A stretch of DNA of 64,000 nucleotides, from contig CAUJDF010000075.1 of NCBI GenBank assembly GCA_963169045.1, positions 98,434 through 162,433 of the forward strand, given 5' to 3'. Both the position numbers and the translations under genes were made by a program. Under the pieces are notes generated by a model, which was not told the DNA's origin, made no database searches, and was given only the letters and a program-made list of their open reading frames with translations. Shown here in pieces: positions 5,046-37,600 of the stretch. Every line of letters starts with the position of its first letter. Within the stretch, counting starts at the first letter, position 1. The DNA is from Myxococcota bacterium. Lineage in GTDB: Bacteria > Myxococcota_A > Bradymonadia > UBA7976 > UBA1532.

Positions 5046-5048
5046 CGC

Positions 5049-7042: not shown

Positions 7043-7101
7043 ATCTCTGGCGACGACCCGTTTCGAGACGCATCCTAAAGATGAGTCAAGGAGGTGACAC
7101 C

Positions 7102-7758
7102 GTGGCCAGGACCGCCCGTGTTCCACGCATCGAGACACGCGAAGACCCCGTGGTCGGCCTGCTCGGCTACCTGCGGGTGGCGGCGGTGCAGACCGACGCG
7201 CGGGGGCGCATCCTTCACGTCAACGACTCGGCGCGCACGCTCTTCGGGCGCGGCGCCGAGGAGTTGAACGGGGAGCGTCTCTCGGCGCTCGCCCGCTTCC
7301 GCAAGGGCGACGTCGAACGGCTGCGCGTCATGGTCGAGCGCCCCACGACGCAGCGCGAGACGCTCACGCTGCGCTTCACGGGCGGCTCGGGCCGCACGTA
7401 CCGCGTCGAGGTCGACGCCGTCGACGATCCGCGCAACGACCGCCGCCGGCTGCTGTTCTTCTACGACGTCACGGAGCTGCACGAGCTGCGACGGCTCCGC
7501 GAGTCGCTGTCGCGCGCCATCGCCCGGTGGCGCAGCGCCATCGGCGAGCGGCCCCCGATCTCGTCGGCGCCGCAGTCGGCGGTCAGCTCCCCGGCGGCCC
7601 GCCCCACCGAGGAGGACGAGCGCCAGCGCATCCGGGCCGCGCTCCGCGCCGCCGGCCAGAACCGCAGCGAGGCCGCGCGCCTGCTCGGCATCAGCCGCGC
7701 GACGTTCTACCGGCGCCTCGGCGCCCTGGGCATCGCGCCCGACGAAGAGGCCGGGTAA
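7102..7758 (+). CDS. PAS-domain transcriptional regulator with a C-terminal Fis-type HTH
   Basis: GTG at 7102 with AGGAGG 8 nt upstream (alternative ATG at 7081). A PAS-like N-terminus is followed by ...NRSEAARLLGISRATFYRRL (Fis/NtrC-type HTH). Confidence 0.8.
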   Translation: MARTARVPRIETREDPVVGLLGYLRVAAVQTDARGRILHVNDSARTLFGRGAEELNGERLSALARFRKGDVERLRVMVERPTTQRETLTLRFTGGSGRTYRVEVDAVDDPRNDRRRLLFFYDVTELHELRRLRESLSRAIARWRSAIGERPPISSAPQSAVSSPAARPTEEDERQRIRAALRAAGQNRSEAARLLGISRATFYRRLGALGIAPDEEAG

Positions 7759-15079: not shown

Positions 15080-17671
15080 ATGTCGCACCCCACCGTCGTC
15101 CTCAAGTTCGGCGGCACCAGCGTCGCCTCCGTCGAGCGCTGGCGCACCATCGCCCACTGCATCGTCGACCGCCTCGGCGAGGGCCTGCGCCCCGTCGTCG
15201 TCTGCTCGGCGGTCGCCGGCATCTCCGACCAGCTCGTGAAGGTCGCCGACCTCGCCCCCGAGGGACGGCACGAGGCCGTCGTCCAGGCCATCGCCGAGCG
15301 GCACCGGGCGCTCGCCGCCGAGATGGGCGTCGATCCGGCGCCGCTCGAGCAGGCCCTCGCCGAGCTCTCGCGCCTCGCGCTCGGCGCCTCGCTGACCGGC
15401 GAGGTGAGCCCGCGCCTGCGCGCCCGCCTCATGGCGTGGGGCGAGCTGACCTCGACCCGCCTCGGCGCCGCCTGGATGGCCGCGCAGGGCATCGACGTGA
15501 CGTGGCTCGACGCCCGCGACCTGCTCACGTCCGCCGATCCGCCAGGCACACCCGCGGCGCGCCGCTACCTCTCGGCGACGTGCGCGCACGACGCCGACGC
15601 GGGCCTGCGCGCGCGCGTCGGCGCGCTGTCCGGCGCCGTCCTCACGCAAGGCTTCATCGCCCGCGACCGGGCCGGCGACATGGTGGTGCTCGGCCGCGGC
15701 GGCTCCGACACCTCCGCCTCGATCCTCGCCGCCCGCCTCGGGGCCGTCCGCTGCGAAATCTGGACGGACGTGCCGGGCATGTTCACCGCCAACCCGCGCC
15801 AGGTCCCCGCCGCGCGCCTCATCCGCGCCGTCGACTATGACGAGGCGCAGGAGATCGCGTCGACCGGCGCCAAGGTCCTGCACCCGCGCTGCCTGCCGCC
15901 GGTGCGCGACGCCCACGTGCCGCTCTTCGTGAAGTGCACCGAGCAGCCGGACCTGCCCGGCACGGTCGTCGCCGACGCCGACGTGGACCGCCCCGCCGGG
16001 GTGAAGGCGATCAGCATGCGCTCCGGCCTCGTGCTCGTCTCCATGGAGACGCTGGGCATGTGGGGCCAGGCCGGCTTCCTCGCCGACGCCTTCGCCTGCT
16101 TCAAGGCGCATGGCGTCAGCATCGACCTCGTCAGCACCTCGGAGAGCAACGTCACCGTCTCGCTCGACCCGGCGACGCAGGTGCTCGACGCCGCCACCCT
16201 CGACCGGCTCGTCGCGGACCTCGCAGCCATCTGCCAGCCGCGCCTCATCCGCGACTGCGCGAGCGTCAGCCTCGTCGGCCGGCACATCCGCCGCATCCTG
16301 CACCGCCTCGCCCCGGCGCTCGAAGCCTTCGAGGAGCAGCGCATCCATCTGTTGACGCAGGCGGCGAGCGATCTGAACCTGACCTTCGTCGTCGACGGCG
16401 ACCAGGCGGACCGCGTCGTCCGCGACCTGCACGCCCATCTGTTCGGCGCCGATGCCATGGCCGTCGATGCCTTGGGACCCACGTGGACGGAGCTCTCCGG
16501 CAAGGGCGCGCCGGCGCGGCCGGTGGGGGAGGGCCGCTGGTGGCGCCACCGCCGCGACGACCTGACGGCGATCGCCGCGCAGGGCACCCCCCGTTATGTG
16601 TACGACGGCGCCACGCTCTGCCGGGGCGTCGCGGGCCTGCGCGCGCTGACATCGGTCTCGCGCGTCCTGTATGCCGTGAAGGCCAACGCCAACGCCGATG
16701 TGTTGCGCCGTCTGTTCGACGCCGGCGTCGGCGGCTTCGAGTGCGTGTCGCCGGGCGAGCTCGCGCACGTCGCCGGTCTGTTCCCGGACCTGCAGGGCCG
16801 CACGGTGCTGTTCACGCCCAACTTCGCGCCGCGCGCCGAGTACGAGCGGGCGTTCGCCGCCGGCGCGACGGTGACGCTCGACAACCTGCACCCGCTCGAG
16901 GCCTGGCCCGACGTCTTCCGCTTCCGCGAGGTGTTCGTGCGCCTCGATCCGGGGCGGGGGATGGGCCACCACCACCACGTGCGCACCGCGGGCACGGCCT
17001 CCAAGTTCGGCATCGCCCCGGACCAGCTCGGCGCGCTCGCCCGCCTCGTCGCGCGCGCCGGCGCCCGCGTCGTCGGCCTGCACGCCCACGTCGGCAGCGG
17101 CGTGCGCGAGCCCGAGGCGTGGGCCCGCACCGGCGCCTTCCTCGCCGACGTGGCGACGAACGGCGGCTTCGCGGCGCACGTCCGCGTCCTCGACCTCGGC
17201 GGCGGCCTCGGCGTGCCCGAGAAGCCCGGCGAGCCGACGCTGGACCTCGCCGCGCTCGACCGCGCGCTCGCCCGCCTGCGCGGCGCGCACCCGCACCTCG
17301 AGCTGTGGCTCGAGCCCGGGCGCTACCTCGTCGCCGAGGCCGGCGTCCTGCTCGCCCGCGTCACGCAGCTCAAGCAGAAGGGCGACGTGACGTACGTGGG
17401 CGTCGACGCCGGCATGAACAGCCTCATCCGCCCGGCGCTCTACGGCGCGTGGCACGAGATCGTGAACCTCACGCGCCTCGACGAGGAGCGCACCGCCACC
17501 GTCCACGTGGTCGGCCCCATCTGCGAGAGCGGCGACACGCTCGGGCATGATCGCCGCCTGCCGCCGAGCCGCGAGGGCGACGTGATCCTCGTCGGCGTGA
17601 CCGGCGCGTACGGCGCCGCGATGGCGTCGCGCTACAACCTGCGCGAGCCGGCGGCCGAGGTCGTCATCTGA
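15080..17671 (+). CDS. lysAC: Bifunctional aspartate kinase / diaminopimelate decarboxylase (LysC-LysA fusion)
   Basis: ATG at 15080 with a GAGAGAGG RBS. The N-terminus has an amino-acid kinase fold (VVLKFGGTSV...) plus ACT-like regions. The C-terminus has a PLP-dependent Orn/DAP decarboxylase fold (YAVKANANADVLRRL...GFECVSPGEL...). Confidence 0.85.
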   Translation: MSHPTVVLKFGGTSVASVERWRTIAHCIVDRLGEGLRPVVVCSAVAGISDQLVKVADLAPEGRHEAVVQAIAERHRALAAEMGVDPAPLEQALAELSRLALGASLTGEVSPRLRARLMAWGELTSTRLGAAWMAAQGIDVTWLDARDLLTSADPPGTPAARRYLSATCAHDADAGLRARVGALSGAVLTQGFIARDRAGDMVVLGRGGSDTSASILAARLGAVRCEIWTDVPGMFTANPRQVPAARLIRAVDYDEAQEIASTGAKVLHPRCLPPVRDAHVPLFVKCTEQPDLPGTVVADADVDRPAGVKAISMRSGLVLVSMETLGMWGQAGFLADAFACFKAHGVSIDLVSTSESNVTVSLDPATQVLDAATLDRLVADLAAICQPRLIRDCASVSLVGRHIRRILHRLAPALEAFEEQRIHLLTQAASDLNLTFVVDGDQADRVVRDLHAHLFGADAMAVDALGPTWTELSGKGAPARPVGEGRWWRHRRDDLTAIAAQGTPRYVYDGATLCRGVAGLRALTSVSRVLYAVKANANADVLRRLFDAGVGGFECVSPGELAHVAGLFPDLQGRTVLFTPNFAPRAEYERAFAAGATVTLDNLHPLEAWPDVFRFREVFVRLDPGRGMGHHHHVRTAGTASKFGIAPDQLGALARLVARAGARVVGLHAHVGSGVREPEAWARTGAFLADVATNGGFAAHVRVLDLGGGLGVPEKPGEPTLDLAALDRALARLRGAHPHLELWLEPGRYLVAEAGVLLARVTQLKQKGDVTYVGVDAGMNSLIRPALYGAWHEIVNLTRLDEERTATVHVVGPICESGDTLGHDRRLPPSREGDVILVGVTGAYGAAMASRYNLREPAAEVVI

Positions 17672-25576: not shown

Positions 25577-27094
25577 ATGCCCGGCACCCAGGCGACCGCC
25601 AGCACCCGCCCGCTCTGGCGGCGCTGTGACGACGAGAATCCCTTCGCGCCGCTGCAGCACGACCTCGACGTCGACGTCGCGATCGTCGGCGCCGGCATCA
25701 CGGGCATCACGCTGGCGGCCCTGCTGAAGCAGGGGGGGCGGCGCGTCGCGGTGATCGAGGCGCGCGACGTGGGCGCGGGTTGCAGCGGGCACTCGACGGG
25801 GCACCTGTCGCCCCTGCTGGACTCCGGGGTCTGCCAGGTCGAGCGGCTGTTCGGCGAAGAGGCCGCGAAGCTGCTCGCGCGCGCGACGATCGAGGCCATC
25901 GACCTCGTCGGCACGCTGGTCGACGTCCACCGCGTCGAGTGCGGCTACCGGCGGATGCCCGGCTACCTGTTCACCGAGGACGAGTCGGGCGTGCGCGAGC
26001 TCGAGCAGGAGATGGAGGCCGGCGTCCGTGCCGGGCTCGACATGGCGCTCGTGCGCGAGACGCCGCTGCCGTTCACGGTGCGGCTGGCGCTGCGGACGCA
26101 GGGCGGCGGGCAGCTCGATCCGCGCGCCTACGTGACCGGCATGGCGCGCAGCCTGGCCGCGCAGGGGGTGGCCATCCACCCTGCGACGCGGGCGCTCGAC
26201 GTCGAGCCCGGCGCGCCCTGCCGCGTCTTCACGGAGCGCGGGACGGTGCGCGCCGCCGACGTCGTCCTCGCGACGCACTCGCCGATCGGCGTGCACCTGG
26301 TGCAGACGGAGCTCTTGCCGTACTCGTCGTATGCCATCGCGGCGAAGCTGCGCGGGGTCGCGCCGCCGGAGGGCCTCTTCTGGGACACGGCCGACCCCTA
26401 CCACTACCTGACGCGCCACGTGTACGACGACGGCGTGTACCTCGTCGCCGGCGGCGCCGATCACAAGACCGGGAGCGTCGAGGAGACGGGCCGCCACTAC
26501 GACGCGCTCGAGGCGTACGTGCGCTCGCGCTTCCCGGTGGCGGCGATCACGCACCGCTGGTCGTTCGACTTCTTCGAGCCCGCCGACCAGCTGCCGTACG
26601 TGGGCCGCACGCCGCTGGCGAACCACGTCTGGTTCGCGACCGGGTTCAGCGGCGACGGCCTCGTGCTCGGCCCGGCCGCGGCGCGCCTCCTCGCCGACCA
26701 GCTGCTCGGCCGCGCCTCGCCGTACGAACGCCTCTTCGACGCGCGCCGCTTCAAGCCCCGCGCGAGCGCGAAGCGGGTCTTCGAGGAGGGGCTCGACGTC
26801 GCGCGGCACTTCATCGGCGACCGCATCGGGAACGGCGGCGGCGCGCCCGAGGACCTGGCGCGCGGCGAAGGGCGCGTCCTCGTCGCGCAGGGCGAGCGCC
26901 TCGCCTGCTACCGCGACGAGGGCGGCACGCTGCACGCGTTCTCGGCCGTCTGCCCCCACATGAAGTGCATCGTGCACTGGAACGGCGCCGAGAAGAGCTG
27001 GGACTGCCCCTGCCATGGCAGCCGCTTCAGCGCCCTCGGCGAGCTCATCGCCGGCCCGGCCCAGCGTCCGCTCACCCGCAAGCCGATCGACTGA
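25577..27094 (+). CDS. FAD-dependent oxidoreductase (DAO-type) fused to a C-terminal Rieske [2Fe-2S] domain
   Basis: ATG at 25577 with a GGGGAG RBS. Rossmann motif VAIVGAGITGITLAALL. C-terminal Rieske motifs are CPHMKC...H and CPCHGSRF. Confidence 0.85.
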   Translation: MPGTQATASTRPLWRRCDDENPFAPLQHDLDVDVAIVGAGITGITLAALLKQGGRRVAVIEARDVGAGCSGHSTGHLSPLLDSGVCQVERLFGEEAAKLLARATIEAIDLVGTLVDVHRVECGYRRMPGYLFTEDESGVRELEQEMEAGVRAGLDMALVRETPLPFTVRLALRTQGGGQLDPRAYVTGMARSLAAQGVAIHPATRALDVEPGAPCRVFTERGTVRAADVVLATHSPIGVHLVQTELLPYSSYAIAAKLRGVAPPEGLFWDTADPYHYLTRHVYDDGVYLVAGGADHKTGSVEETGRHYDALEAYVRSRFPVAAITHRWSFDFFEPADQLPYVGRTPLANHVWFATGFSGDGLVLGPAAARLLADQLLGRASPYERLFDARRFKPRASAKRVFEEGLDVARHFIGDRIGNGGGAPEDLARGEGRVLVAQGERLACYRDEGGTLHAFSAVCPHMKCIVHWNGAEKSWDCPCHGSRFSALGELIAGPAQRPLTRKPID

Positions 27095-27110
27095 CCGCGC
27101 CCTCGCCGGG

Positions 27111-28406
27111 TCAGACCTCGTCGGGCACGGGCGCCGGGCGGCGCGGCAGCTCGAGGCGGAAGCACGCGCCGGCCCCGGGGGCGGCGGTGGTCGTCACGCG
27201 CCCGCCGTGGCGGCGGGCGATGCGGTCGACCGTCGCCAGGCCGATGCCGGTGCCGGGGTAGTCGGCGTGCAGCCGCTGGAAGGGCCGGAACAGGCGCCGG
27301 ACGTGGTCCATGTCGAAGCCGACGCCGTTGTCGCGCACCTCGATGACGTCGAGCCCGGCCTCGGGCCCGCCCGTGACGCGCAGCGCCGCGTCCGCCCGCG
27401 CCCCCGTGAACTTGAAGGCGTTGGAGACGAGGTTCTGCAGCGCGACACGCAACAGGTCGCGGTCGCCGTCGGCGACGAGGCCGTCCTGGATGTGCACGCG
27501 CACCCGGCGGCCGGGGCTGGCGGCAGCGACCTCGGCGGCGACCTCGGCGGCCAGGGCGGACACGTCCTGCGGTTCGCGGCGCAGCTCGGCGCTCGAGACG
27601 CGGGCCAGGTCGAGGAGCGCGACGATGAGGGCGCCCATGCGGTCCGCGGCGCCGGCGGCGCGCGTCAACAGATCGCGGCCCTCGTCGTCGAGCGAGGCGC
27701 CATGCTCCTCGAGGACGATCTCGATGAGGCTCCGGACGCCCCGCAGCGGCACCTGCAGGTCGTGGGAGACGGCGTACGAGAAGCTCTCGAGCTCGGCGAG
27801 GGCGGCCTGCAGGTGCTCCGTCCGCGCGGCGAGCGCGTCGTGGGCCTGTTGCAGGCGGCGGTACAGGCGGGCGTTGGTGATGGCGAGCGCCGCGTGGTCC
27901 GCCAGCCGCTGCAGGAACTCGACGTCGTCGCCCGTGTACGGCGCGACGGTGCGGTCGCGCCACACGGACAGCGCGCCGATCACGCCGTCCCGCGTGCGCA
28001 GCGGGACGCTGATCGCGCTGCGCACCGGGAAGCGGTCCATGTAGGCCTGCACGGGCGCCGCGAGCAGCGCGCGCAGGGCCGCCGGATCGACGGACGGGTA
28101 GAACGCGGGCCGTCCCGTGCGGACGACGCCGCCCGTGACCCCTTCGGACACGAGCGACTGGGCGCCGCGGGCCAGGCCCAGCGCCAGCTCCATGGCCGCG
28201 GGATCGGGGTGGTGCAGCGCGACGGGGATCAGCGCGCTGGCCTCGAGGTCGAGCAGCTCGACGAGGCAGGCGTCGCCGAGCAGCGCGGCGACGCGCGCCG
28301 CCAGCGCCCGCAGGACCGAGGCATAGTCCACGCCGGTCTCCGCCAGCAGGCGGGACAGCTCGGCCAGATCGGAGGCGCGCGTCTCGCTCACGGGCCGACG
28401 GTACAC
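27111..28406 (-). CDS. GAF-sensor histidine kinase
   Basis: GAF-like N-terminus, HisKA (FSYAVSHDLQVPLRGV) and HATPase_c (NLVSNAFKF...GTGIGLATV). Starts at GTG 28406. Confidence 0.85.
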   Translation of the reverse strand: MYRRPVSETRASDLAELSRLLAETGVDYASVLRALAARVAALLGDACLVELLDLEASALIPVALHHPDPAAMELALGLARGAQSLVSEGVTGGVVRTGRPAFYPSVDPAALRALLAAPVQAYMDRFPVRSAISVPLRTRDGVIGALSVWRDRTVAPYTGDDVEFLQRLADHAALAITNARLYRRLQQAHDALAARTEHLQAALAELESFSYAVSHDLQVPLRGVRSLIEIVLEEHGASLDDEGRDLLTRAAGAADRMGALIVALLDLARVSSAELRREPQDVSALAAEVAAEVAAASPGRRVRVHIQDGLVADGDRDLLRVALQNLVSNAFKFTGARADAALRVTGGPEAGLDVIEVRDNGVGFDMDHVRRLFRPFQRLHADYPGTGIGLATVDRIARRHGGRVTTTAAPGAGACFRLELPRRPAPVPDEV

Positions 28407-28427
28407 CGCCTCGCCGCCGGACGTAAG

Positions 28428-29939
28428 TCAGGCCTCGCCGCGCTCGATCCAGGCCCGCCGCGCGGCCTCGGCCTCGGGCGTGCGCGGACCGTCGCAGAAC
28501 AGCGCGAAGAGGGGGTCGATCTGGCCGGCGCGCGGCGCGCGGCCCGATGCCTGCCATATCCGGAAGGCGCGCTGGGCGGCGGTGCGTCCGCCCTCGCCGA
28601 AGGTGGCCGAGACGAGGCGCGACACGGTCTCGCGCCGGCGGCCCAGCGCGGCGGCGGTGTCGCTGACGTTGAAGTCGTGGGCGGCGAGCAGCGCCAGCAG
28701 CTCCTCGGGGGAGGGCGGCCAGACGGGGGCGGCCTCGACGGCGGCGACGGCGACCGGCGGCGGTGGGAGGGAGACGCCGGCGCCGCGCTCGGCGTGCGCC
28801 TTCACCATCGCGGGCGTCGGCGCCTCGCCGAGCGCCACGCGCCGCGCCAGCGTCTCGAGGCCGCGCACGTTCTCGACCCATGACGCGAGCAGCAGCGCCT
28901 GGGCGACCTCGACACTGCGGACGACCGGCCCCTCGACGCCCGCCGCCGCCAGCGCGGCGTCGAACATCGCCAGCAGGTCCTCCCGCCGGGCCCGCAACGG
29001 CGGCACGACGAGCTGTCCGACCACCATGCGGCTGAGCAGGTCGTGGCGCAGCGCCCCCGCGGCGGCGAGCGCGAACACGTCGCGGTTGGTCGCCGAGACC
29101 AGCCGGCACTCGGTGCGCAGCCGCTTGGCGCCGCCGACCGGCAGGAAGCCGGGATCGAGCGGGTCGAAGGCGTCGAGCAGCTTGGCCTGCGCCGGGACCG
29201 GCAGGTCGGCCAGCTCGTCGAGGAAGAGCGTCCCGCCGCGGGCCCGTGTCAGCAGGCCCGCCTGCTCCTTGACCGACGGGATGAAGCCGCCGACGACGCC
29301 GAACAGCGTCGCCTCCTCGAGGTTCACGGGCAGCGCGCTGCAATTGTGGCTCACGAACGGCCCGTTGCAACGCCCCGAGCGCTCGTGCAGCAGCCGCGCG
29401 ACCCGCGTCTTGCCCGTGCCCATCTCGCCGAGCAGCAGGACGGGCAGGTCGCTCGCCGCGAGGGACAGCACGCGGTCCCAGAGCTGACGCATCCCCCACG
29501 AGCGGCACGAGAAGTCGGGCGGCGGCGGCGACGCCGGCGCCGCGCTGGTGGTGCCGACCACGAAGAGCGAGCCGCCGATCTGCAGCACGGCGCCGAGCGG
29601 GGCGACCGTGCGCTCCGTGATGCGGCGGCCGTCGACGTACGTGCCGTTGCGGGAGCCCAGGTCCTCGACGACGACGCCCGGCTCTCCGCCGTTGCGCGGC
29701 ACGAGGCGCGCGTGGCGACGGCTGAGCCAGCCGTCGTCGCCGACCGCCAGGCCGCCCTCCGGCGCGCGGCCGATCTCGAGCCCGGCGCCGATCGCGATCA
29801 CGGCGTCGGTCCGGGCCGACGGCGCCTCGGCGAACACCCAGCGCACGTAGGGCGCGCCCCCCGGCGTCTCGCCGCCGCCGTCGGCGAGGCCCTGCGGCCG
29901 CGTGAGTGTCGTCCCGCCGTCGATCACGGCGGGCATCAT
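28428..29939 (-). CDS. FHA-domain sigma54-dependent transcriptional activator (bacterial enhancer-binding protein)
   Basis: FHA (...GSRNGTYVDGRRI...), the sigma54-interaction AAA+ domain (LLLGEMGTGKTRVARLLH; the GAFTGA-loop region reads GVVGGF) and a C-terminal HTH (NVSDTAAALGRRRETVSRL). It lies 22 nt upstream of the GAF histidine kinase. Confidence 0.85.
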   Translation of the reverse strand: MMPAVIDGGTTLTRPQGLADGGGETPGGAPYVRWVFAEAPSARTDAVIAIGAGLEIGRAPEGGLAVGDDGWLSRRHARLVPRNGGEPGVVVEDLGSRNGTYVDGRRITERTVAPLGAVLQIGGSLFVVGTTSAAPASPPPPDFSCRSWGMRQLWDRVLSLAASDLPVLLLGEMGTGKTRVARLLHERSGRCNGPFVSHNCSALPVNLEEATLFGVVGGFIPSVKEQAGLLTRARGGTLFLDELADLPVPAQAKLLDAFDPLDPGFLPVGGAKRLRTECRLVSATNRDVFALAAAGALRHDLLSRMVVGQLVVPPLRARREDLLAMFDAALAAAGVEGPVVRSVEVAQALLLASWVENVRGLETLARRVALGEAPTPAMVKAHAERGAGVSLPPPPVAVAAVEAAPVWPPSPEELLALLAAHDFNVSDTAAALGRRRETVSRLVSATFGEGGRTAAQRAFRIWQASGRAPRAGQIDPLFALFCDGPRTPEAEAARRAWIERGEA

Positions 29940-30025
29940 AGACCGTCACGCCGCCGATCACACCGCGTCACGCCCGATCACGCCGCCCGGACGACCTCCG
30001 CCACGCGCCCCCGCGGTGCGCGCGT

Positions 30026-30040
30026 TGGCACGTGCGTTGC
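30026..30040 (+). promoter_or_regulatory. Near-consensus sigma54 promoter (TGGCAC-N5-TTGC)
   Basis: TGGCACGTGCGTTGCG against the consensus TGGCAC-N5-TTGCW. It sits between the divergent activator gene and the downstream + strand genes; the predicted TSS is ~20 nt before the small ORF's RBS. Confidence 0.6.
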
Positions 30041-30072
30041 GATGGGCCCCGCCCCGCGAAGGGGGAGAGGCG

Positions 30073-30228
30073 ATGAAGCGACACGGAAGCATCGGCGCGG
30101 CGGTCATCCCGGTGGCCTTGCGCGCGCCCGTCGCTCTCGCCTGTCTGGTGCTCGCGCACGGGCTGGCGCTCGTCGCCGTGCTCGCCTTCGTACGCCTGCG
30201 CGTCGGCGCCGGGCGCGATCGGCGTTGA
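30073..30228 (+). CDS. Putative 51-aa small membrane protein
   Basis: ATG at 30073 with GGGGGAGAGG 2 nt upstream. The protein MKRHGSIGAAVIPVALRAPVALACLVLAHGLALVAVLAFVRLRVGAGRDRR has one TM helix. It lies ~35 nt downstream of the sigma54 promoter. Confidence 0.35.
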   Translation: MKRHGSIGAAVIPVALRAPVALACLVLAHGLALVAVLAFVRLRVGAGRDRR

Positions 30229-30291
30229 AGGCGTCGCGCGCCGCCCGGCGCGCGTGCGAGACTGGCGCCTCCACCACCCGACGGGGATGTC

Positions 30292-32970
30292 GTGACGCCG
30301 CGCCGGTCGCTCGCGCTGCTGTCGAGCCTGCTCGTGGCCTGCGGCGAGCCCGTGGCGCCGGACGCCGGCGGCCCCCCCGACGCTGCGGTGACGCGCCCGC
30401 CGGACGCGGCCCCGCCCGACACCGGCGAAGCCGCGGACGCCGCGGCGGGGCGCCCGCCCGACGGCGCGCTGCCCGACGCGGCGCCGCCGCCCCCGCCGCT
30501 CCTCCGCATCAACGAGGTCGACTGCCGCGACCCGGCCCACGTGGAGATCGCCAACGCCGGCTCCGCCGCCGCGGACCTCGCCGGCTTCACCGTCGTCGCG
30601 GCACAGCACCCCGGCCGCGTCCTGCGCCTCGACGGCCGGCTCGAGGCCGGCGCCCTGCTCGACGTCGCCGCGCCACCGTTCGCCGTGCACTGCGGCGCCA
30701 CGACGGTGACGCTCCTCCGGCCCGACGGGACGGAGGCCGACCGCGTGGACGTCCCGCTCGGCCCCGCCGCGGCGACCTGGGGGCGACTGACGGACGGCTG
30801 GGGGACGACGGAGCCCACGCCCGGCACGCCCAATGTCCCGCTCTTGCCGCCGGCGCCCGAGCTGTTCGACCCGGCCGTCGTGCACGAGATCGCGCTGACG
30901 ATCGCCCCGGACGCCTGGCAGGTGCTGCGCGACGCAGGGCACATCATGGTGGACGCGGCGCTCGCCGCGGAGGGCGACACGACGCCCGTCGGCGTCCGCC
31001 TCGGCGGGCGCGACGGCCGGTACCGGCGCATCGATCAGAAGCCGTCCCTGCGGCTCGCCTTCGACCACCGCGCTCCGGAGCGGCGCTTCCGCGGCCTGCA
31101 GGGCCTCGTCCTCGATCCGGCGGGCCTCGATCCGGCGGTGCTCACCCGCTGGCTCGCCGGCGAGGTGCTCCGCGCGGCGGGCGTCGTCGCCCCGCGCGTC
31201 GGCTTCGCGCGCCTCGCCGTGAACGGCGAGGACTACGGCCTGTACCTGGTCGTCGAGGCGTGGGACGCGGGGCTCGCCGACCGGCACTTCCCCTCGACGT
31301 GGCATGTCTACGAGGGCGCCGGCCTCGACCTCGTGTCCGAGCACGTCGAGGCCTTCGACGTGGAGGTCGGCGAGCCGGCCGGCCGCCGCGGGCTCGTCCC
31401 CGTCGTCGCCGCGCTCGAGGCGGCGGGCGCCGACCTCTTCGGCGCCACCGCGGATTACGTGGACTGGGACGCCGTGTTGCGCGCGATGGCCGCGGAGGTC
31501 TGGATGGGCAGCGTCGACGGCTACGCGGTGGGCCGCCGCGCCGTCGCGCTCCACATCGACGCGCTGCCGCGGCTCACGCTGCTGCCGGCGGGGACGGATC
31601 TCGCCTTCCGCGCGCGGTCGCCCGTCCACGCCGGCGCCGGCCGCCTCCTGACGGCGTGCCTCGCCGACGCCGCGTGCGCCGCTGCGTGGGACGCGACGCT
31701 GGCCGACGTCTCCGCGGCGCTCGCCGATCTCGAGCTCCTCCCCGCGGCGCAGGCGCTGGCCGCCCGTTTGCGCCCGCACGTGGCGCGCGATCCGCGAACG
31801 CTGTTCTCGGTCGAGATGTTCGACGCCGACGTCGCCGTGATCCTCGGCTTCCTCGCCGAGCGGCCCGCGGAGATGGCCGCGCTCGGAGCGTGCCTGCGCG
31901 ACGCCGCCGACGCGGACGGCGACGGCGCAGTGTGCGACGCCGACTGCGCGCCGGACGATCCCGCCGTCCACGCGGGCGCGGCCGAGGTGTGCGGCGACGG
32001 CGTCGATCAGGACTGCAGCGGCGTCGCCGACGACGGCGCCTGCCCGGTGTGTACGCCGCTCGATCGCGGCGGGCATGGCTACCTCGTGTGCCCCGGCAGC
32101 TGGACGTGGGCGGACGCGCGCCGCGTGTGCACCGATCGCGGCCTCGACCTCGTCGCGATGGACGACGCCGGCGAGAACCGCTGGCTGCGGGCGCGCGCGG
32201 CGGCGGTGCGCCGCCAGGACTGGTGGCTCGGCCTCTCCGACACGGCGCGCGAGGGCACGTTCGCCTGGGTCGACGGTCGGGAGCGCGGGTTCGCGAACTG
32301 GGGCGGCGGCGAGCCCAACGACTACGGGGCCGGCGAGGATTGCGCCCAGCTCCGCAGCGACGGCGCCTGGAACGACCTGCCCTGCGACGCCGGCCTCGGC
32401 GCGCTGTGCGAGGCGCCGTGCGATCCGGCGACCGACGCCGACGGCGACGGCCACTCCGCGTGCGGCGCCGACTGCGACGACGCCGATCCGCAGGTGCACC
32501 CCGGCGCGGTCGACGTGTGCGGCGACGGCGTCGACCAGGACTGCTCCGGTGTCCCGGACGACGGCGCCGGCGAGGGGGACTGCGACTGCGCCGCCTTCGA
32601 GCGCGAGGGGCGGCGCTACCTCGTGTGCCCGCGGCCGCAGCCCTACGCCGCGGCCCGCGAGCTCTGCCGCGCGCACGGCGGCGACCTGGTCGTGGTCGGC
32701 GACGCCGCCGAGAACGCGTGGCTGTTCGCCACCGCCACCGGCCTCGTCCCGCAGCGCTACTGGATCGGCCTCGACGACCTCGCCGTGGAGGGCGCCTACC
32801 GCTGGGTGGACGGCACGCGTCCGCGCTTCGTGGCCTGGAGCCGCGGCGAGCCCAACGACTCGGGGCGCGCCGAGGACTGCGGCCACTTCTGGGAGGACGC
32901 GCCGCGCTGGAACGACATCGGCTGCGACGCGGCGCTCGGCGCGATCTGCGTCCTCAGAACGGCAGACTGA
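30292..32970 (+). CDS. Lipoprotein combining a lamin-tail domain, a CotH kinase-like domain, two C-type lectin domains and MopE-like Cys-rich metal-binding motifs
   Basis: GTG at 30292. LLSSLLVAC lipobox. LTD reads LRINEVDCRDPAHVEIANAG...FTVV. The central CotH-like region reads ...SLRLAFDH...GLYLVVEA.... CTLD signatures are WWLGLSD...WNDLPCD and YWIGLDDLAVEGAYRWVDG...WNDIGCDAALGAICV. CDDADPQVHPGAVDVCGDGVDQDCSG appears twice. Confidence 0.85.
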   Translation: MTPRRSLALLSSLLVACGEPVAPDAGGPPDAAVTRPPDAAPPDTGEAADAAAGRPPDGALPDAAPPPPPLLRINEVDCRDPAHVEIANAGSAAADLAGFTVVAAQHPGRVLRLDGRLEAGALLDVAAPPFAVHCGATTVTLLRPDGTEADRVDVPLGPAAATWGRLTDGWGTTEPTPGTPNVPLLPPAPELFDPAVVHEIALTIAPDAWQVLRDAGHIMVDAALAAEGDTTPVGVRLGGRDGRYRRIDQKPSLRLAFDHRAPERRFRGLQGLVLDPAGLDPAVLTRWLAGEVLRAAGVVAPRVGFARLAVNGEDYGLYLVVEAWDAGLADRHFPSTWHVYEGAGLDLVSEHVEAFDVEVGEPAGRRGLVPVVAALEAAGADLFGATADYVDWDAVLRAMAAEVWMGSVDGYAVGRRAVALHIDALPRLTLLPAGTDLAFRARSPVHAGAGRLLTACLADAACAAAWDATLADVSAALADLELLPAAQALAARLRPHVARDPRTLFSVEMFDADVAVILGFLAERPAEMAALGACLRDAADADGDGAVCDADCAPDDPAVHAGAAEVCGDGVDQDCSGVADDGACPVCTPLDRGGHGYLVCPGSWTWADARRVCTDRGLDLVAMDDAGENRWLRARAAAVRRQDWWLGLSDTAREGTFAWVDGRERGFANWGGGEPNDYGAGEDCAQLRSDGAWNDLPCDAGLGALCEAPCDPATDADGDGHSACGADCDDADPQVHPGAVDVCGDGVDQDCSGVPDDGAGEGDCDCAAFEREGRRYLVCPRPQPYAAARELCRAHGGDLVVVGDAAENAWLFATATGLVPQRYWIGLDDLAVEGAYRWVDGTRPRFVAWSRGEPNDSGRAEDCGHFWEDAPRWNDIGCDAALGAICVLRTAD

Positions 32971-33643
32971 TCGCCGCGCACAGGAACGAGAGGTAGTCGC
33001 GCGTTCGCTCGAACCGGCCGGCGAGCTCGTCGACGACGGCGGGTGAGCCGAACACGACGGGATCGAGGTCGCACACGGCGATGAACGAGGTGCGCTTCAG
33101 CTCCTCGGCCAGCGGGTGCGTCGCGTCGAACCCGCGCGGCACGCGCTTCAGCTTGTCGCCGCCCTGGCGGAACGTCTCGGCGAAGGCGGGCTCGCCGAGG
33201 ATGGCCGCAAAGCGCTCGCCCTTGTCGGCCACCTGCTCCCGGAGGCGCTGCAGCACCGCCGGCTCCGGCCCCCACAGGCCGGCCCCGAGGAAGCACCCCT
33301 CCGGCGCGAGGTGCACGTACAGCCCGGGCGCGTGCACGTCCTTGCCGGCGTCGTGCCGGAACTGGATGCCGACGTTCGTCTTGTACGGCGTCTTGTCCTT
33401 CGAGAAGCGCGTGTCGCGGTGGACGCGCATCAGCGAGCCGCCCACCTTGCGGTCGTCCGCCACGAAGTGGGGCGACAGCGCCTGCAGGCGCGGCTTCATC
33501 GCGCGGATGAACGCCCGCGCCGGCTCGCGCACGTCGCGCTCGTAGCGATCGCGGTTGGCCTCGAACCACGTGCGCTCGTTGCGCAGCGAGAGCTCCTCGA
33601 GGAACTCGAGCGTGCCCGCGGGGAAGCCGTCGAACGTCTCCAT
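32954..33643 (-). CDS. DUF2461 (TIGR02453) family protein
   Basis: ATG at 33643 with a GGAGGGAGG RBS. It reads METFDGFPAGTLEFLEELSLRNERTWFEANRDRYERDVREP..., a typical DUF2461 N-terminus. The long 5' extension in the track is not supported. Confidence 0.8.
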   Translation of the reverse strand: METFDGFPAGTLEFLEELSLRNERTWFEANRDRYERDVREPARAFIRAMKPRLQALSPHFVADDRKVGGSLMRVHRDTRFSKDKTPYKTNVGIQFRHDAGKDVHAPGLYVHLAPEGCFLGAGLWGPEPAVLQRLREQVADKGERFAAILGEPAFAETFRQGGDKLKRVPRGFDATHPLAEELKRTSFIAVCDLDPVVFGSPAVVDELAGRFERTRDYLSFLCAAISLPF

Positions 33644-33684
33644 TGCCCCCTCCCTCCGTCGTCGGAGCGGGGAGCGTGGCACAC

Positions 33685-34404
33685 TCAGCGCGGGCGGACC
33701 ACCAGCCACGTGCGGCGGATTTGACGCGCCTCGATGCGGCCGCCCTCGCCGAAATTCGAGTCGAGCTCGCCGCGGCGCACGCGGGCCACGGTCACCTCCA
33801 CGCGGCAGCTCTCCTCGCCGTGGGCCTCGAGGTCGCCCGGCTGCACGACCAGGCCGCCGCGGTCGTCGTGGATCACGCGCTCGAAGGGCCAGATGCAGTC
33901 GCCCTCGAGCCGCACCTCGACGGGATCGCCGGCGGCGCGGTCCCACGTGATGCGCACGCGGTCCTCGCCGGGCACGACGAGCGCGCCGGCCCGCGGCGAC
34001 GTCAGCCGGAACGGCTCGGGCAGCGACACCGTCGAGTCGTCGGCGTCCTCGCCGTTCTCGGACGGCCGCTCGAACGCCACGCGGAACTCGGTGTCGGCCT
34101 CGTCGCGCGAGAAGGCGGCCAGGTAGTGGACCTCGTCCCAGACGTTGCGGCTCGCGACCATCGTCTTCGTCTGCGCCTGCGCCGTGGCCAGCAGACGGTC
34201 GCCTGCGGTCAGCTCGAGGTAGGTGTTCGACGAGTCGCCGCCGGGGCGCAGCGTCGTGCGGACGATGCTCTGTCCGTCGCCGTGCGCCTCCACCTCGATC
34301 TCGGCGTACACACCCGAGGTACGCAGGTCGGCGGAGTCGAGCGTCTCGCAGGCGGCGACGGAGAGCAGGCTGACGGCGACGGCGATCTTCGCGGAACGAT
34401 TCAT
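33685..34404 (-). CDS. Hypothetical lipoprotein
   Basis: ATG at 34404 with a GGGGGAG RBS. MNRSAKIAVAVSLLSVAAC lipobox. It occupies the 3' end of the 2271-aa shadow ORF. Confidence 0.7.
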   Translation of the reverse strand: MNRSAKIAVAVSLLSVAACETLDSADLRTSGVYAEIEVEAHGDGQSIVRTTLRPGGDSSNTYLELTAGDRLLATAQAQTKTMVASRNVWDEVHYLAAFSRDEADTEFRVAFERPSENGEDADDSTVSLPEPFRLTSPRAGALVVPGEDRVRITWDRAAGDPVEVRLEGDCIWPFERVIHDDRGGLVVQPGDLEAHGEESCRVEVTVARVRRGELDSNFGEGGRIEARQIRRTWLVVRPR

Positions 34405-34650
34405 GATTCTCCCCCGGTGTTCGTGTGTTTCGCCGCGGGATGGAGCAACGACCGTGCCGAGGGCGGCGGGCCCGCGGCGATGGCGGTCGGGCGTGCGCCG
34501 TGTGAACGCGCGTTCATGCAGTCGCCGACCGCCGTGCACAGGGGGGCGCCGTCCGGCGGGCGGCCCGCTTGCGTCATTCGGGGACCTGCCCGCACAATCG
34601 GGCCGTTTCGCGCCCCGGGGGGCGTCTCGACTCGTCAAGTCCATCAGAGG

Positions 34651-37600
34651 ATGTCCATGCGTAGGGTCACTTCGCTGACGAGCCTGCTGTGCCTTCTGTT
34701 CATGTTCGGCTGCACCGGCGAAGGCGGGGGCGGCGGTGACGGAGGCTCGGGCGGTGCCGGTGCTCAGGGCGGTGAAGGCGGCGCGGGCGGCTCGGGTGGC
34801 GAGGGCGGGGCCGGTGGAGAAGGCGGCGTCGGCGGCCAGGGCGGCGCCGGCGGCCCGGGCGGCGCCGGCGGCCAGGGCGGCGCCGGTGGACAAGGCGGCG
34901 CCGGCGGACAGGGCGGCGCCGGCGGTCAAGGCGGCGCCGGCGGTCAAGGCGGCGCCGGCGGTCAAGGCGGCGCCGGCGGAGAAGGCGGCGCCGGCGGAGA
35001 AGGCGGCGCCGGCGGAGAAGGCGGCGCCGGCGGAGAAGGCGGCGCCGGCGGAGAAGGCGGCGCCGGAGGTCAGGGCGGCGCCGGAGGTCAGGGCGGCGCC
35101 GGTGGCGCCGGCGGCCAGGGTGGCGCCGGCGGCGCGGGCGGTGAGGGCGGAGCGGGCGGCGCCGGCGGTGCGCCCGAGGTCGTCCTGCAGGGGCTGACGG
35201 TCGCGCCCGACGCCCTCCAGCTCGTCGCCGGCCAGACCGCGTACCTGCGCGTCGCCGGCACCTTCAGCGACGGCGACGAACGCGATCTGACCGACACCGC
35301 GGTCTGGCGCAGCGCCAACGGCGCGATCGTCGCCGTCGGCGCCCTCGGCGACGAGGGCAAGCAGGTCGTCGCCATCGGCGCCGGCCAGACGGCGATCACC
35401 GCCCGCGTCGGCGACGTCGTCAGCGGTCCGGTCGTGGTCACCGTGGCCGAGGTCGAGCCCGTCCGCATCGTCATCACGCCCGACGAGGCCACCGTGCCCG
35501 CCGGCGACTTCTTCGAGTTCACGGCGACCGCCGAGTTCAACGACGGTAACACCGCCGACGTGACCGAGCTGGCCGAGTGGCGCACCAGCAACGGCATCGT
35601 GGCCGAGATCTCCAACGAGCCCGGCGAGCGCGGGCGCCTCTCGGCCCACGTGGCGGGGGCGACGCAGGTCACGGCGATCTACGAGGGCCTGGTCTCGGCG
35701 CCGGTCCGCGTCGACGTCGCCGAGGCCGTCCTCATGGCGATCGACGTCTCGCCCGCCGATCCGACGGTGGCCGTCGGCCAGACGGTCTCCTTCACCGCGA
35801 CTGGCACCTACAGCGACGGCGACGAGGGCGACGTCACGGCGCTGGTGCAGTGGACGTCCTCCGACGAGGCCGTCGCGACCTTCGACGGCGCGCAGGGCGT
35901 GGCGCGCGGCGTCGCCGCCGGCCGGGCGCAGGTCGTCGCCCGCATCGGCGACCTCGCCAGCGCGCCGCGCACGATCAACGTCACGGCGGCGCGCGTCGTC
36001 GCGCTCGCCGCGCGCGGCGAGTCCGCCGAGGTGCCGGTCGGCGCGAACACACGCTTCCACGTCACCGCGACCCTGAGCGACGGCAGCGAGGTCGACTACT
36101 CGGCGCAGGCGGAGTGGCGCTCCTCCGACGCCGCGATCGCGCGCATCGTCGCCGGCGGCGTCGCCACCGGCGTGGCGCCCGGCGACGTGCAGATCACGGC
36201 GCACGCCGGCAACGTCGCGAGCGCGGCCCTGCCGCTGCGCGTCGTGCCCGTGGCGCTCACCGCGCTCGCGGTCGAGCCCGACAGCGCCGACCTCCGCGTG
36301 GGCGAGGTGACCCGCCTCGTGGCCCGCGGCACGTTCAACGACGGCTCCCGCGCCGACGTCACCGCGCGGGCCCAGTGGCGCAGCGCCAACGGCCTGATCG
36401 CCAGCGTCGGCGACGCCGAGCCCGACAAGGGCGCGGTCCGCGGCGTCGGCGCCGGGCAGACGCGCATCACCGCTTCCCTCGACGGCCAGGCGGCGGTCGC
36501 CACGGTCAACGTCCGCGCCCTCGCGGTCGCCCGGCTCGAGGTCGCGCCGGCCCAGGCCGAGGTCCCGCTGGGCGGCGAGCAGGCGTTCACCGCCACGGCG
36601 GTGCTCGAAGACGCCTCGCGCCGCGACGCTACCGCCGAGGTCAGCTGGCACAGCAGCGACGAGGGCGTGGCCACGGTCGACAACGAGGGCGAGGGCCGCG
36701 GTGTCGCCACCGGCCGCGGGCGCGGCCAGGCGTCGATCACCGCCCGGCTCGGCGCCGTCGTCAGCCCCGCGGCGACGCTCACCGTGACCGAGCCCGAGCT
36801 CACCGAGGTCTACGTCACGCCCGACGAGACCGAGGTGATCGTCGGCGAGACCGTGCAGTTCGAGGCGACCGCGGTGTACTCCGACGGCACCGAGCTCGAC
36901 GTCACCGAGCAGGCGCGCTGGACGATCGAGCCCGCCGAGCTCGCCGACATCTCCAACGCCGAGGGCACGCGCGGCGCGGCCACCGGCCAGCGTCTCGGCG
37001 TCGCCGACGTCTTCGCCTCCTTCGACGGCGAGCTCTCCGGGGCGGCGTCCCTGACGGTGCTGCCCGTGCCGAACCGCGCGCCGATCGTTCAGCTGCAGTG
37101 CCCGGAGTCGGGCCGCGAGGGCGACGCGCTCGACTTCGGCGCCGTGGGCACGAGCGACCCCGACGGCTCGATCGCCCGGCTGCTGTGGAACTTCGGGGAC
37201 GGCTCGCCGGCCATCGACATCGGCGACGGGCGCGCCGTCTCGTACACCTACGACGCCTCGGGCCCCTTCACGGTCGAGGTGACGGCCATCGACGACGAGG
37301 GCGCGCGGACGATCGCGCGCTGCAACGTGACCATCCTCAGCGCGAACGCCCCGACGGTGCGGCTCGTCCGCCCGCAGGGCGCCCGCGACACCACCCAGGG
37401 GGAGGTGATCTCGGCGCTCGTCGACGCGCGCCCCGGTCCGGGTCGCAACATCCGGCGCGTGGCGCTGCTGCTCGACGGGGAGGAGGTCGCCTTCGACGCC
37501 GACCTGCCCTACGAGATGGACTTCACGGTCCCCGCCGACGCGGCCACCGGCGCCACGCTGCGCCTCGTCGCCCAGGCGACGGACGACCGCAACGAGTCCG

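Follow-up and report, generated by a model that had tools for sequence, protein, structure and literature searches.

A clade of AAA+ regulators that lacks the GAFTGA motif of sigma-54 activators appears to be tied to −24/−12 promoters, and this testable association is the surprising feature of a locus that is a real module and is mostly ordinary for Myxococcota. With somewhat better than an even chance, in our estimate, the locus is an enhancer-dependent sigma-54 (−24/−12) promoter module of a myxobacterial lineage, in which the regulator acts as the activator and the CotH gene is variable cargo.

Organization of the locus

We analysed a stretch of 64,000 nt (64 kb; hereafter the window). The features named in an earlier sequence-only reading (kinase, regulator, promoter motif, small ORF and CotH-lectin gene) were confirmed, with corrections. 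Its interpretation fared unevenly, as the promoter element and the small ORF stood, the kinase/EBP pair did not and control of the CotH gene was weakened. The features are as follows.

27111-28406, minus strand: cytoplasmic histidine kinase of 431 aa with GAF, HisKA and HATPase_c domains (Pfam)
28428-29939, minus strand: regulator of 503 aa with FHA, AAA+ (sigma-54 interaction family) and Fis-like HTH regions (Pfam)
28611-28673, minus strand: Fis-type HTH-like segment FNVSDTAAALGRRRETVSRLV, aligned to the HTH_8 region in canonical EBPs
29274-29291, minus strand: L1-loop tip GGFIPS, aa 217-222, at the GAFTGA position (MAFFT and HMMER alignments)
29574-29777, minus strand: FHA domain, aa 55-122 (Pfam, clade alignment)
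29910-29981, no strand assigned: candidate enhancer (UAS) with three CGTCNCGCC..CGATCAC units (29910-29927, 29944-29961 and 29966-29981)
30026-30041, plus strand: P1, sigma-54-type promoter, 16-mer TGGCACGTGCGTTGCG (GG at 30027-30028, GC at 30039-30040)
30073-30228, plus strand: small ORF of 51 codons, whose 51-aa product has a single hydrophobic helix (aa ~22-40)
30292-32970, plus strand: CotH-lectin lipoprotein of 892 aa (lipobox LLVAC), in the order signal/lipobox (aa 1-17), LTD-like (69-153), CotH (244-526), MopE repeat, lectin 1 (605-707), MopE (727-757), lectin 2 (~785-886)
32954-33643, minus strand: DUF2461 gene, which overlaps the convergent CotH gene by 17 nt
33685-34404, minus strand: gene for a 239-aa lipoprotein with lipobox VAAC and no assigned Pfam family, oriented like DUF2461 and upstream of it
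34444-34459, minus strand: P2, second sigma-54-like element, CGGCACGGTCGTTGCT, preceding the gene for the 239-aa lipoprotein by ~39 nt

Conservation of P1 and its upstream repeats

The sigma-54 consensus match claimed earlier was borne out: TGGCACGTGCGTTGC (30026-30040, plus strand) reads TGGCAC-N5-TTGC and is the sole exact match in the 64 kb. Between P1 and the regulator's start codon there are 87 nt, not ~300 nt as first claimed, and the other distances were close to those proposed, 32 nt (~35) to the 51-codon ORF and 251 nt (~250) to the CotH-lectin gene. Transcription is predicted to start near 30051-30053.

A common layout of regulator gene, G(A)TCAC array, TGGCACG-N4-T[TC]G[CA] and a gene for a secreted or membrane protein was found in five independent loci, a small comparative set (the window, L007, L010, L011 and L021) with regulators 56-100% identical. 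Between the window and L007 the −24 and −12 bases are kept and only the unspecified spacer has changed, with the flanks diverged; P1 equivalents are present in the other three loci, and in all five the −12 element is 32-39 nt from the start codon. The relaxed form of the motif, which was defined after the five loci had been seen, gave eight matches in the 338 kb of strand-bases searched, all eight upstream of a correctly oriented gene and five in regulator-divergent intergenic regions. Neither a promoter nor a repeat array adjoins the regulator at four other clade loci (L008/L012, L009, L013 and L023). By its sequence conservation, the −24/−12 element is a conserved promoter-like element beside the family of the 28428-29939 regulator. 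An aGGGGyCsG block directly 3′ of the −12 element is also conserved.

The candidate UAS straddles the regulator's own start codon. Its G(A)TCAC half-sites are spaced 9-11 bp, and two exact copies of the unit were observed against 0.01 expected, with a third copy also found. The window and L007 barely differ in the repeat block, whereas the sequences on either side have diverged, and GATCAC/GTGATC clusters are confined to the regulator-divergent intergenic regions of the five loci. The array sits only ~45-115 nt upstream of the −24 element, a distance that we counted against the best reading.

P2 is kept as TGGCACGGGCGTCGCA at 35-50 in L007, where the DUF2461 gene also serves as a synteny anchor, common to the window, L007 and the P0002 contig. 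No significant G(A)TCAC array accompanies P2, and a UAS-like match upstream of it was not above chance; thus P2 may answer to another activator.

A conserved small ORF followed by variable cargo

The small ORF, with GGGGGAGAGG just upstream, was called as a gene in a Logan contig and has the same length in L007. Its last 35 codons differ from those of L007 by 12 synonymous and five non-synonymous changes, indicating purifying selection, and only three clusters of its protein are known. On these comparisons the 51-aa TM ORF proposed behind the promoter is a real gene and the conserved first gene behind P1.

The cargo behind the promoter varied between loci. The CotH-lectin gene is not the conserved target. 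L007 keeps the promoter and the small ORF only; the more distant relatives L010, L011 and L021 carry HHH_3/DUF4215 lipoproteins (ComEA-like HhH), and the P0002 contig carries HHH_3/DUF4215, CotH-lectin and Pkinase genes. At L002-L004, the CotH-lectin homologues come without the regulator and without a sigma-54 motif. By gene content, the CotH-lectin gene is a putative lineage-specific passenger in a variable cargo slot behind P1. In the window, the small ORF and the CotH gene are separated by a 63-nt same-strand gap with no terminator, the spacer hairpin being no more stable than shuffles, and read-through into the CotH gene is plausible in this genome. Thus the dedicated sigma-54 control of this gene claimed earlier is weakened by L007 and L002-L004, and the short gap without a terminator is what still speaks for it.

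Alternatively, P1 may drive the small ORF only, leaving the CotH-lectin gene to an unrecognised promoter of its own outside the regulator's control. We consider this somewhat unlikely. The unit in L007, taken as ancestral, stops at the small ORF and CotH-lectin genes elsewhere lack a P1-type promoter, as expected if it were so, and a sigma-70 scan for a separate CotH promoter was uninformative in the G+C range of the window; against it stand the terminator-free gap and the P0002 contig, where the CotH gene likewise follows, within a cluster on one strand, a gene of the HHH_3/DUF4215 type, which is the divergent target elsewhere.

The domain assignments of the 892-aa protein largely held. CotH (70.1 bits; cut-off 23.8) and the two Lectin_C domains (131 bits) passed the HMM check and the lipobox is present, whereas the lamin-tail match fell below the Pfam cut-off (21.9 against 34.3 bits), with three homologues having a recorded PF00932 match. 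Two Cu-binding_MopE Cys/Asp repeats (62 bits), one ahead of each lectin domain, had been missed. Eight homologues share this architecture, and the DGY...H-x-D...D motifs are kept in the nine-member CotH-lectin family. Both lectin domains contain EPN and WND motifs, which mark Ca2+-dependent mannose/GlcNAc/fucose-type binding, and by motif they are putative binders of this type; in two homologues QPD replaces EPN in the first lectin domain.

Replacement of GAFTGA in an intact AAA+ domain

Pfam analysis of the regulator gave 48.6 bits for FHA and 136 bits for Sigma54_activat, and Walker A, Walker B, the arginine fingers and sensor II are all intact. The regulator itself gave no Pfam HTH_8 match; the clade member P0018 has a recorded PF02954 match. 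The GAFTGA position was set by MAFFT alignment with canonical FHA-EBPs and by HMMER alignment to Aquifex NtrC1. The regulator clade comprises ~55 clusters at 90% identity (~14 at 50%), and its replacement of GAFTGA by GFIPxV is observed directly: GFIP[STGQ][VI] is present in 51 of 55 members and GAFTGA in none. The clade conserves the L1 tip, F219-I220-P221-x-V223, which indicates that selection acts on the loop and that it is not decaying. GAFTGA is the motif by which the field defines sigma-54 activators, and comparative surveys read its loss as loss of sigma-54 activation (PMC3162934, PMC12316311). By alignment, the regulator fails this defining test, which the earlier reading did not see. 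Among the searchable entries of a 2011 list of defective motifs, GGFIP did not appear.

The regulator could instead be a sigma-54-independent EBP descendant, like TyrR, DhaR, HupR, Rhodobacter capsulatus NtrC and VpsR, that binds the G(A)TCAC array to autoregulate its own operon, or to repress or modulate P1, with a canonical, GAFTGA-bearing EBP encoded elsewhere opening P1. In favour of this, the tip is never canonical, published work takes such changes to mean sigma-70 dependence (PMC3162934, PMC6158489), the repeats reach into the start region of the regulator gene, as would suit autoregulation, and several clade members have no nearby sigma-54 motif. However, it leaves unexplained a −24/−12 element at a fixed distance from the array in five loci, and an intact ATPase machinery with a conserved altered tip is unexpected if no partner is remodelled. 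We judge it unlikely.

Chance matches and other sigma factors

It is very improbable, in our view, that TGGCAC...TTGC is not a sigma-54 promoter but a chance match in 75% G+C DNA or part of another signal, such as an ECF-sigma −35-like box paired with the GGGGYC block. GC-rich DNA does give partial matches (six with one mismatch in the window against 2.2 expected, several inside genes), the conserved block follows the −12 element directly, and the −12 dinucleotide is GA, not GC, in L010 and L021, which also counts against the best reading. An exact match, however, was expected only 0.05 times from shuffles against one observed; position, orientation and spacing are kept in five loci with only unspecified bases varying, always beside a sigma-54-activator-family gene, and no consistent ECF-type −10 (CGTC/GTC) was found across them.

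Signal input to the regulator

The kinase contains the H-box SHDLQ and G-boxes, and its gene lies 21 nt downstream of the regulator gene (~22 nt as claimed), with which it is probably co-transcribed. Among the predicted genes of the 64-kb window that were scanned, Pfam detected no Response_reg domain, and with respect to these genes the kinase is an orphan. Neither a receiver domain nor a phospho-acceptor module is present in the regulator (Pfam), and thus the adjacent GAF kinase cannot feed it by His-Asp transfer. Besides the window, L007, its closest relative (kinase 77% identical), is the only locus in which the kinase adjoins the regulator, and the other seven clade loci lack it there; elsewhere the regulator's neighbours include a Ser/Thr kinase (L009) and a dual-specificity phosphatase, DSPc (L023). 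The clade shows no variation at the FHA phosphothreonine-binding residues (G57, R58, S73, R74, H76, N98 and G99). The earlier model, in which a dedicated GAF kinase phosphorylates the EBP to switch on sigma-54 transcription of a CotH-kinase/lectin effector, is hardly tenable, since the short gap, the pairing kept in L007 and the terminator-free position of the CotH-lectin gene are outweighed by the missing receivers, by the seven loci lacking the kinase, by L007 with a promoter and no CotH gene, and by CotH-lectin homologues lacking promoter and regulator.

Proposed mechanism

In the favoured sigma-54 module, the regulator (28428-29939, minus strand) would bind the phased G(A)TCAC repeats at 29910-29981 across its own start codon, probably also autoregulating the regulator/kinase operon; its switch would be a phosphothreonine-dependent interaction made by the FHA domain and not a His-Asp transfer from the kinase. 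ATP hydrolysis would then open sigma-54 RNA polymerase at 30026-30040. The transcript, from ~30052, would encode the conserved 51-aa membrane peptide and most likely run over the 63-nt gap into the CotH-lectin gene in the window genome.

Comparison with known systems

The 892-aa protein resembles Bacillus CotH (5JD9/5JDA), with similarity to 5JD9 at E 7e-6 over ~270 residues; Asp228 and Asp251 are catalytic in that spore-coat kinase (PMC7821199), and their equivalents here are not mappable with confidence. It differs in being a predicted exported lipoprotein of a Gram-negative-type cell, fused to an LTD-like module, MopE repeats and two C-type lectins. Its two Lectin_C domains match solved CTLDs with E down to 1e-46, as in animal C-type lectins (mannose receptor, DEC-205 and DC-SIGN), but the host is bacterial and a Cys/Asp-rich MopE repeat precedes each domain.

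The regulator aligns with Aquifex NtrC1 and E. coli PspF (1NY6, 2BJW and 5NSS) over ~225 residues (E ~1e-37), sharing Walker A and B, sensor motifs and arginine fingers. It differs at the L1 tip, LFGVV-GGFIPSV against LFGYEKGAFTGAV, with a one-residue deletion, and in its FHA regulatory domain, where they have a receiver or none. FHA-domain enhancer-binding proteins of Myxococcus xanthus were reportedly described by Jelsbak, Givskov and Kaiser in 2005; the regulator shares with them FHA, sigma-54-family AAA+ and C-terminal HTH regions, a myxobacterial-type genome and an input presumed to come from Ser/Thr-kinase signalling, not His-Asp transfer. In searches, the nearest outgroup of the clade is formed by canonical FHA-EBPs, but these carry GAFTGA in place of GFIP(S/T/G)V, and the clade has no recorded PF25601 match and has an extra, clade-specific conserved C-terminal extension of ~60 aa in clade alignments.

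A disrupted L1 motif in a sigma-54-activator-family AAA+ domain is shared with TyrR, DhaR, HupR and R. capsulatus NtrC, GAFTGA-less EBP homologues that work with sigma-70 (PMC3162934), and with VpsR, described likewise (PMC6158489). Those proteins are not associated with −24/−12 promoters, whereas here the element and its upstream array are conserved beside the gene.

A sigma-54-type promoter divergent from the regulator gene

The features of the locus are listed below by position in the window, together with a second sigma-54-like element further along.

Features of the locus (EBP, enhancer-binding protein)
27111-28406, minus strand: kinase gene, GAF-HisKA-HATPase_c by Pfam
28428-29939, minus strand: gene of the FHA + Sigma54_activat regulator (503 aa), 21 nt upstream of the kinase gene
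29910-29981: three CGTCNCGCC..CGATCAC units with half-sites 9-11 bp apart (candidate enhancer)
30026-30040, plus strand: core of the promoter P1, TGGCACGTGCGTTGC
30073-30228, plus strand: 51-codon small ORF with the ribosome-binding site GGGGGAGAGG ahead of it
30292-32970, plus strand: CotH-lectin gene, encoding an 892-aa lipoprotein with Pfam CotH, two Lectin_C and two Cu-binding_MopE matches
34444-34459, minus strand: second sigma-54-like element P2, CGGCACGGTCGTTGCT, ~39 nt upstream of a 239-aa lipoprotein gene (33685-34404, minus) that is followed by a DUF2461 gene (32954-33643, minus)

The window has a base composition of 74.8% G+C, and the source names attached to database homologues (Myxococcota, Polyangiaceae, Kofleriaceae and Bradymonadia) point to Myxococcota. 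The sigma-54 consensus previously read at P1 was confirmed: it is the sole exact TGGCAC-N5-TTGC match in the 64-kb window, against 0.05 expected from dinucleotide shuffles, and its GG and GC dinucleotides lie exactly 10 bp apart, as the sigma-54 −24/−12 class requires. Sites with one mismatch numbered six against 2.2 expected, and since several of them are intragenic, weak sigma-54 matches mean little in this DNA. The distance from the promoter motif to the start of the regulator gene, put at ~300 nt in the sequence-only reading, was measured as 87 nt.

We compared P1 with its counterpart in L007, the metagenomic contig that is the closest relative, and with three further independent loci (L010, L011 and L021/L022) whose regulators are 56-58% identical. 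The intergenic alignment of the window with L007 showed that the bases specified at −24 and −12 were identical, that two unspecified bases of the spacer differed (GTGCG vs GCACG), and that the flanks had diverged, with an indel. TGGCACG and T[TC]G were retained at the promoter in L010, L011 and L021, and the −12 dinucleotide was GA, not GC, in two of the five loci. Reading away from the regulator gene, the three further loci have the layout of a GATCAC/GTGATC cluster, then TGGCACG-N4-T[TC]G[CA] and finally a start codon, 37 nt past the −12 element; the corresponding distance from P1 to the ATG of the small ORF is 32 nt, and the range across all five loci is 32-39 nt. The relaxed pattern TGGCACG-N4-T[TC]G[CA] occurred eight times in the 338 kb of strand-bases of all relevant loci. 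Every one of these sites lay upstream of a gene in the correct orientation, and five of them were in regulator-divergent intergenic regions.

P1 is very probably a functional sigma-54 promoter, and both the promoter and its tie to the neighbouring regulator family are well supported by the comparison of loci; the window itself carries no rpoN gene. Reading P1 as an ECF-sigma promoter was rejected because no consistent −10 element was common to the five loci. No sigma-70-like promoter was detected in 29800-34800. We also observed an unexplained aGGGGyCsG block that directly follows the −12 element and is conserved in each of the five promoters (30042-30052 in the window; L007, L010, L011 and L021), near the predicted transcription start.

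A repeat array as candidate enhancer

Ahead of the −24 element, at a distance of 45-115 nt, lie phased G(A)TCAC arrays. Among the loci scanned, at least three GATCAC/GTGATC hexamers within 80 nt occurred only in the regulator-divergent intergenic regions of the five loci, and we infer that the regulator binds at these arrays. Repeat array, −24/−12 element and gene are together laid out as in an enhancer-dependent promoter. One more GTGATC cluster (59650-59682) falls within the gene of a Big_2 protein and was set aside as coding sequence.

The gap between array and −24 element is longest in L010 and L011, where unusually A+T-rich tracts are present (L010 3092-3134 and L011 4879-4907), the L010 tract holding the IHF-site-like AAAATCAAGGAGATGG. 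Such tracts would fit enhancer looping.

The regulator and its clade

The regulator, which starts one Met later in the public gene call, matched the Pfam families Sigma54_activat (PF00158; 136 bits, cut-off 20.2) and FHA (48.6 bits, cut-off 20.7). Among its closest relatives, hereafter the clade, GEMGTGKT, LFLDEL, R298 and R304, representing Walker A, Walker B and the arginine fingers, are invariant, as are the phosphothreonine-binding residues of the FHA domain (G57, R58, S73, R74, H76, N98 and G99). The C-terminal segment FNVSDTAAALGRRRETVSRLV aligned with the HTH of canonical EBPs and gave no Pfam HTH_8 match; PF02954 is recorded in one clade member.

At the GAFTGA position, the regulator has GGFIPS with a one-residue deletion, as aligned with canonical FHA-EBPs using MAFFT and in agreement with a HMMER comparison against Aquifex NtrC1. 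GFIP[STGQ][VI] was present in 51 of the 55 clade members and the canonical motif in none, and the L1-tip residues F219, I220, P221 and V223 are invariant across the clade. The GGFIP variant is absent from the searchable part of a 2011 list of defective motifs. The clade is sharply separated, with ~55 clusters at 90% identity scoring at least 272 bits and the next match 211; at 50% identity an exhaustive profile search gave ~14 clade clusters, and the hits beyond these were canonical GAFTGA, GAFSGA or GSFTGA proteins. Just two distant canonical EBPs were returned when the genome contigs were searched with the regulator. Thus the regulator lacks a defining mark of EBP membership, the GAFTGA motif. 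Among the loci compared, its family is nevertheless the most consistent neighbour of the −24/−12 promoter and putative enhancer.

Phospho-signalling genes beside the regulator

The kinase encoded next to the regulator scored 41 bits for HisKA and 81 bits for HATPase_c, and contains SHDLQ, DNGVGF and GTGIGL. The two genes had been taken for a dedicated kinase/EBP pair, a view that did not hold, because the N-terminal sensory domain of the regulator is, by Pfam, an FHA domain without a receiver, and because the kinase adjoins the regulator only in the window and L007, being absent in the other clade contigs L008-L014 and L021-L024. Response_reg had no match in any scanned predicted gene of the window. 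Elsewhere, the neighbour of the regulator was a Ser/Thr protein kinase (L009), a dual-specificity phosphatase separated by a 16-nt gap (L023/L024), or unrelated genes (L008 and L013). The recurring theme beside the clade is phospho-signalling and not a fixed His-Asp pair, which is consistent with a phosphothreonine input.

The small ORF and the variable genes behind P1

In L007, where the regulator is 85% identical, the kinase, small ORF, DUF2461 gene and 239-aa lipoprotein gene are neighbours as in the window, and the small ORF has 51 codons in both. Over its last 35 codons, 18 were identical, 12 had synonymous and five non-synonymous changes, the other two frames showing almost exclusively non-synonymous changes. 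Its product is predicted to form one strongly hydrophobic helix, and three protein clusters are known for it in total. The small ORF is a genuine gene.

The CotH-lectin gene starts after a 63-nt gap. No intrinsic terminator was found in 29800-34800, and the stability of a hairpin in the spacer equalled that of shuffled sequences (z = −0.02); the two genes are probably, with some reservation, co-transcribed. Read-through or fusion between them, which are in the same frame with one TGA between, was rejected, since L007 keeps both the stop and the length of the small ORF; the CotH gene is absent there, and the convergent DUF2461 gene ends 29 nt past the small ORF.

The gene behind the promoter in L010, L011 and L021 encodes a lipoprotein with ComEA-like HHH_3 repeats and Cys-rich DUF4215 repeats. 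On the contig of P0002, the closest CotH-lectin homologue (62% identity), the order on one strand is HHH_3/DUF4215, CotH-lectin and Pkinase, followed by a convergent DUF2461 gene; a partial gene on the opposite strand upstream may be a regulator orthologue. The more distant homologues in L002-L004 have different neighbours, and no sigma-54 motif was found upstream of them. These differences among loci indicate that the slot behind P1 holds variable exported proteins, of which the CotH-lectin protein is one lineage-specific occupant. The sequence-only reading had made the CotH-lectin gene a dedicated sigma-54 target; missing from L007, and with a different gene in the slot in L010, L011 and L021, it is a passenger and not a conserved target.

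A Ser/Thr kinase gene lies no more than three genes from the CotH-lectin gene in three of four loci (the P0002 contig, L002 9885-11444 and L004 9900-11012, not L003). This proximity may be due to chance, as kinases of this type are numerous in the genomes concerned.

The CotH-lectin lipoprotein

The domain assignments of the CotH-lectin protein stood for the most part. The CotH domain scored 70.1 bits against a Pfam cut-off of 23.8 and matched the Bacillus cereus CotH structure 5JD9 with an E-value of 7e-6. D409 (in DGY), H421-x-D423 and D436 are retained throughout the family, and the reference aspartates of the CotH kinase are D228 and D251 of B. subtilis (PMC7821199); the register near D251 is ambiguous by two residues. 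The two Lectin_C domains reached 131 bits together (Pfam), both having EPN (aa 674 and 853) and WND (aa 693 and 873). Together EPN and WND motifs predict Ca2+-dependent binding of the mannose type. Two Cu-binding_MopE repeats had been overlooked. The lipobox signal MTPRRSLALLSSLLVAC is present, with Cys17 invariant in the family. The part that fell short was the lamin-tail domain (LTD; PF00932), which scored 21.9 bits, under the gathering cut-off of 34.3; PF00932 matches are recorded in the homologues P0005, P0007 and P0008, and an LTD-like fold is likely.

Nine proteins have a common architecture of lipobox, Pro/Ala/Asp-rich linker, LTD-like domain, CotH and two MopE + C-type lectin units. 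A reasonable guess is that the protein is exposed at the surface, binds glycans and has a CotH kinase that may be active.

Other sigma-54-like elements and genes

P2 is kept in L007 (35-50) as TGGCACGGGCGTCGCA. Upstream of P2, five G(A)TCAC-like matches were found against 6.4 expected, no better than chance, and, having no significant G(A)TCAC array, P2 may belong to the regulon of another activator. Divergent from P2, a gene at ~34657-40575 (plus) encodes a giant exported protein whose repeats are of the Big_2, PKD, Y_Y_Y and right-handed beta-helix/NosD types; its true start is uncertain, as the longest ORF overlaps the lipoprotein gene on the opposite strand.

The top score in a rough PWM scan went to the sigma-54-like TGGAACGGGCGTTGCT (53612-53627, plus), which is followed 46 nt later by a DUF2071 gene (53672-54802, plus) and lies in a stretch without an ORF passing the GC3 filter (third-codon-position G+C, used to pick likely real genes). 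In other clade contigs, a perfect 16-mer, TGGCACGCATGTTGCT, is identical at L008 3370-3385 (minus)/L012 349-364 (minus) and L013 70-85 (plus), where it precedes a large gene (with an eCIS_core domain in L008) 4.6-4.9 kb from the regulator-clade gene; the contigs sharing it differ strongly in G+C (66% vs 73%).

Elsewhere in the window, a 239-aa PAS + HTH_8 protein (7039-7758, plus) resembles an EBP without the AAA+ domain. Directly downstream, the gene at 7810-12351 (plus) encodes a 1513-aa Pkinase-AAA_16-TPR-GAF-HisKA-HATPase_c protein, a Ser/Thr kinase fused to a histidine kinase. The 863-aa ORF at 15080-17671 (plus), with amino-acid kinase, ACT and PLP-dependent Orn/DAP/Arg decarboxylase domains, looks like an aspartokinase-diaminopimelate decarboxylase fusion. 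A supposed split DUF4331 gene at 5046 proved to be two ordinary adjacent genes, and no Rfam family matched in 26500-35500.

Does the clade activate sigma-54?

Sigma-54 promoters with FHA-type activators are routine in Myxococcota, and the cassette as first described is unremarkable. From that description the sequence features, the promoter and the link to the regulator family survived, and the kinase/EBP pair and the CotH-lectin gene as conserved target did not; the lipoprotein is better seen as interchangeable cargo behind a promoter, which tempers its reading as a dedicated effector. The unexpected result is an apparent tie between a GAFTGA-less activator clade and −24/−12 promoters. The key point is this mismatch: the clade is associated with such promoters and a well-defined repeat enhancer, yet it lacks GAFTGA. 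To our knowledge, every current survey, like the mutational work, takes the motif to be indispensable for contact with sigma-54.

We favour the reading that the regulator still activates sigma-54, because it retains an intact motor, strong selection acts on the loop tip and the promoter association is conserved. Its specific form, in which a conserved myxobacterial FHA-EBP clade would activate sigma-54 RNA polymerase through a GFIP(S/T/G)V L1 loop replacing GAFTGA, is possible and we put it forward tentatively. A serious rival, which we consider unlikely, is that the role of the regulator at the P1 enhancer is sigma-54-independent or negative. The loss of the canonical motif in every clade member would suit it, and the intact motor and conserved promoter association speak for activation. 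An alternative reading is that the clade has turned into a dedicated negative regulator stationed on sigma-54 enhancers.

If the clade does activate sigma-54, GAFTGA would not be strictly required, and catalogues filtered on GAFTGA would miss real activators. The outcome would either widen the known range of sequences at the activator-sigma-54 interface or bring to light a class of EBP-derived regulators that sit on sigma-54 enhancers but do not activate. In two comparative surveys, GAFTGA is the defining feature of sigma-54 activators, and deviants from it, such as TyrR, DhaR, HupR and VpsR, are classed as sigma-70 dependent (PMC3162934, PMC12316311).
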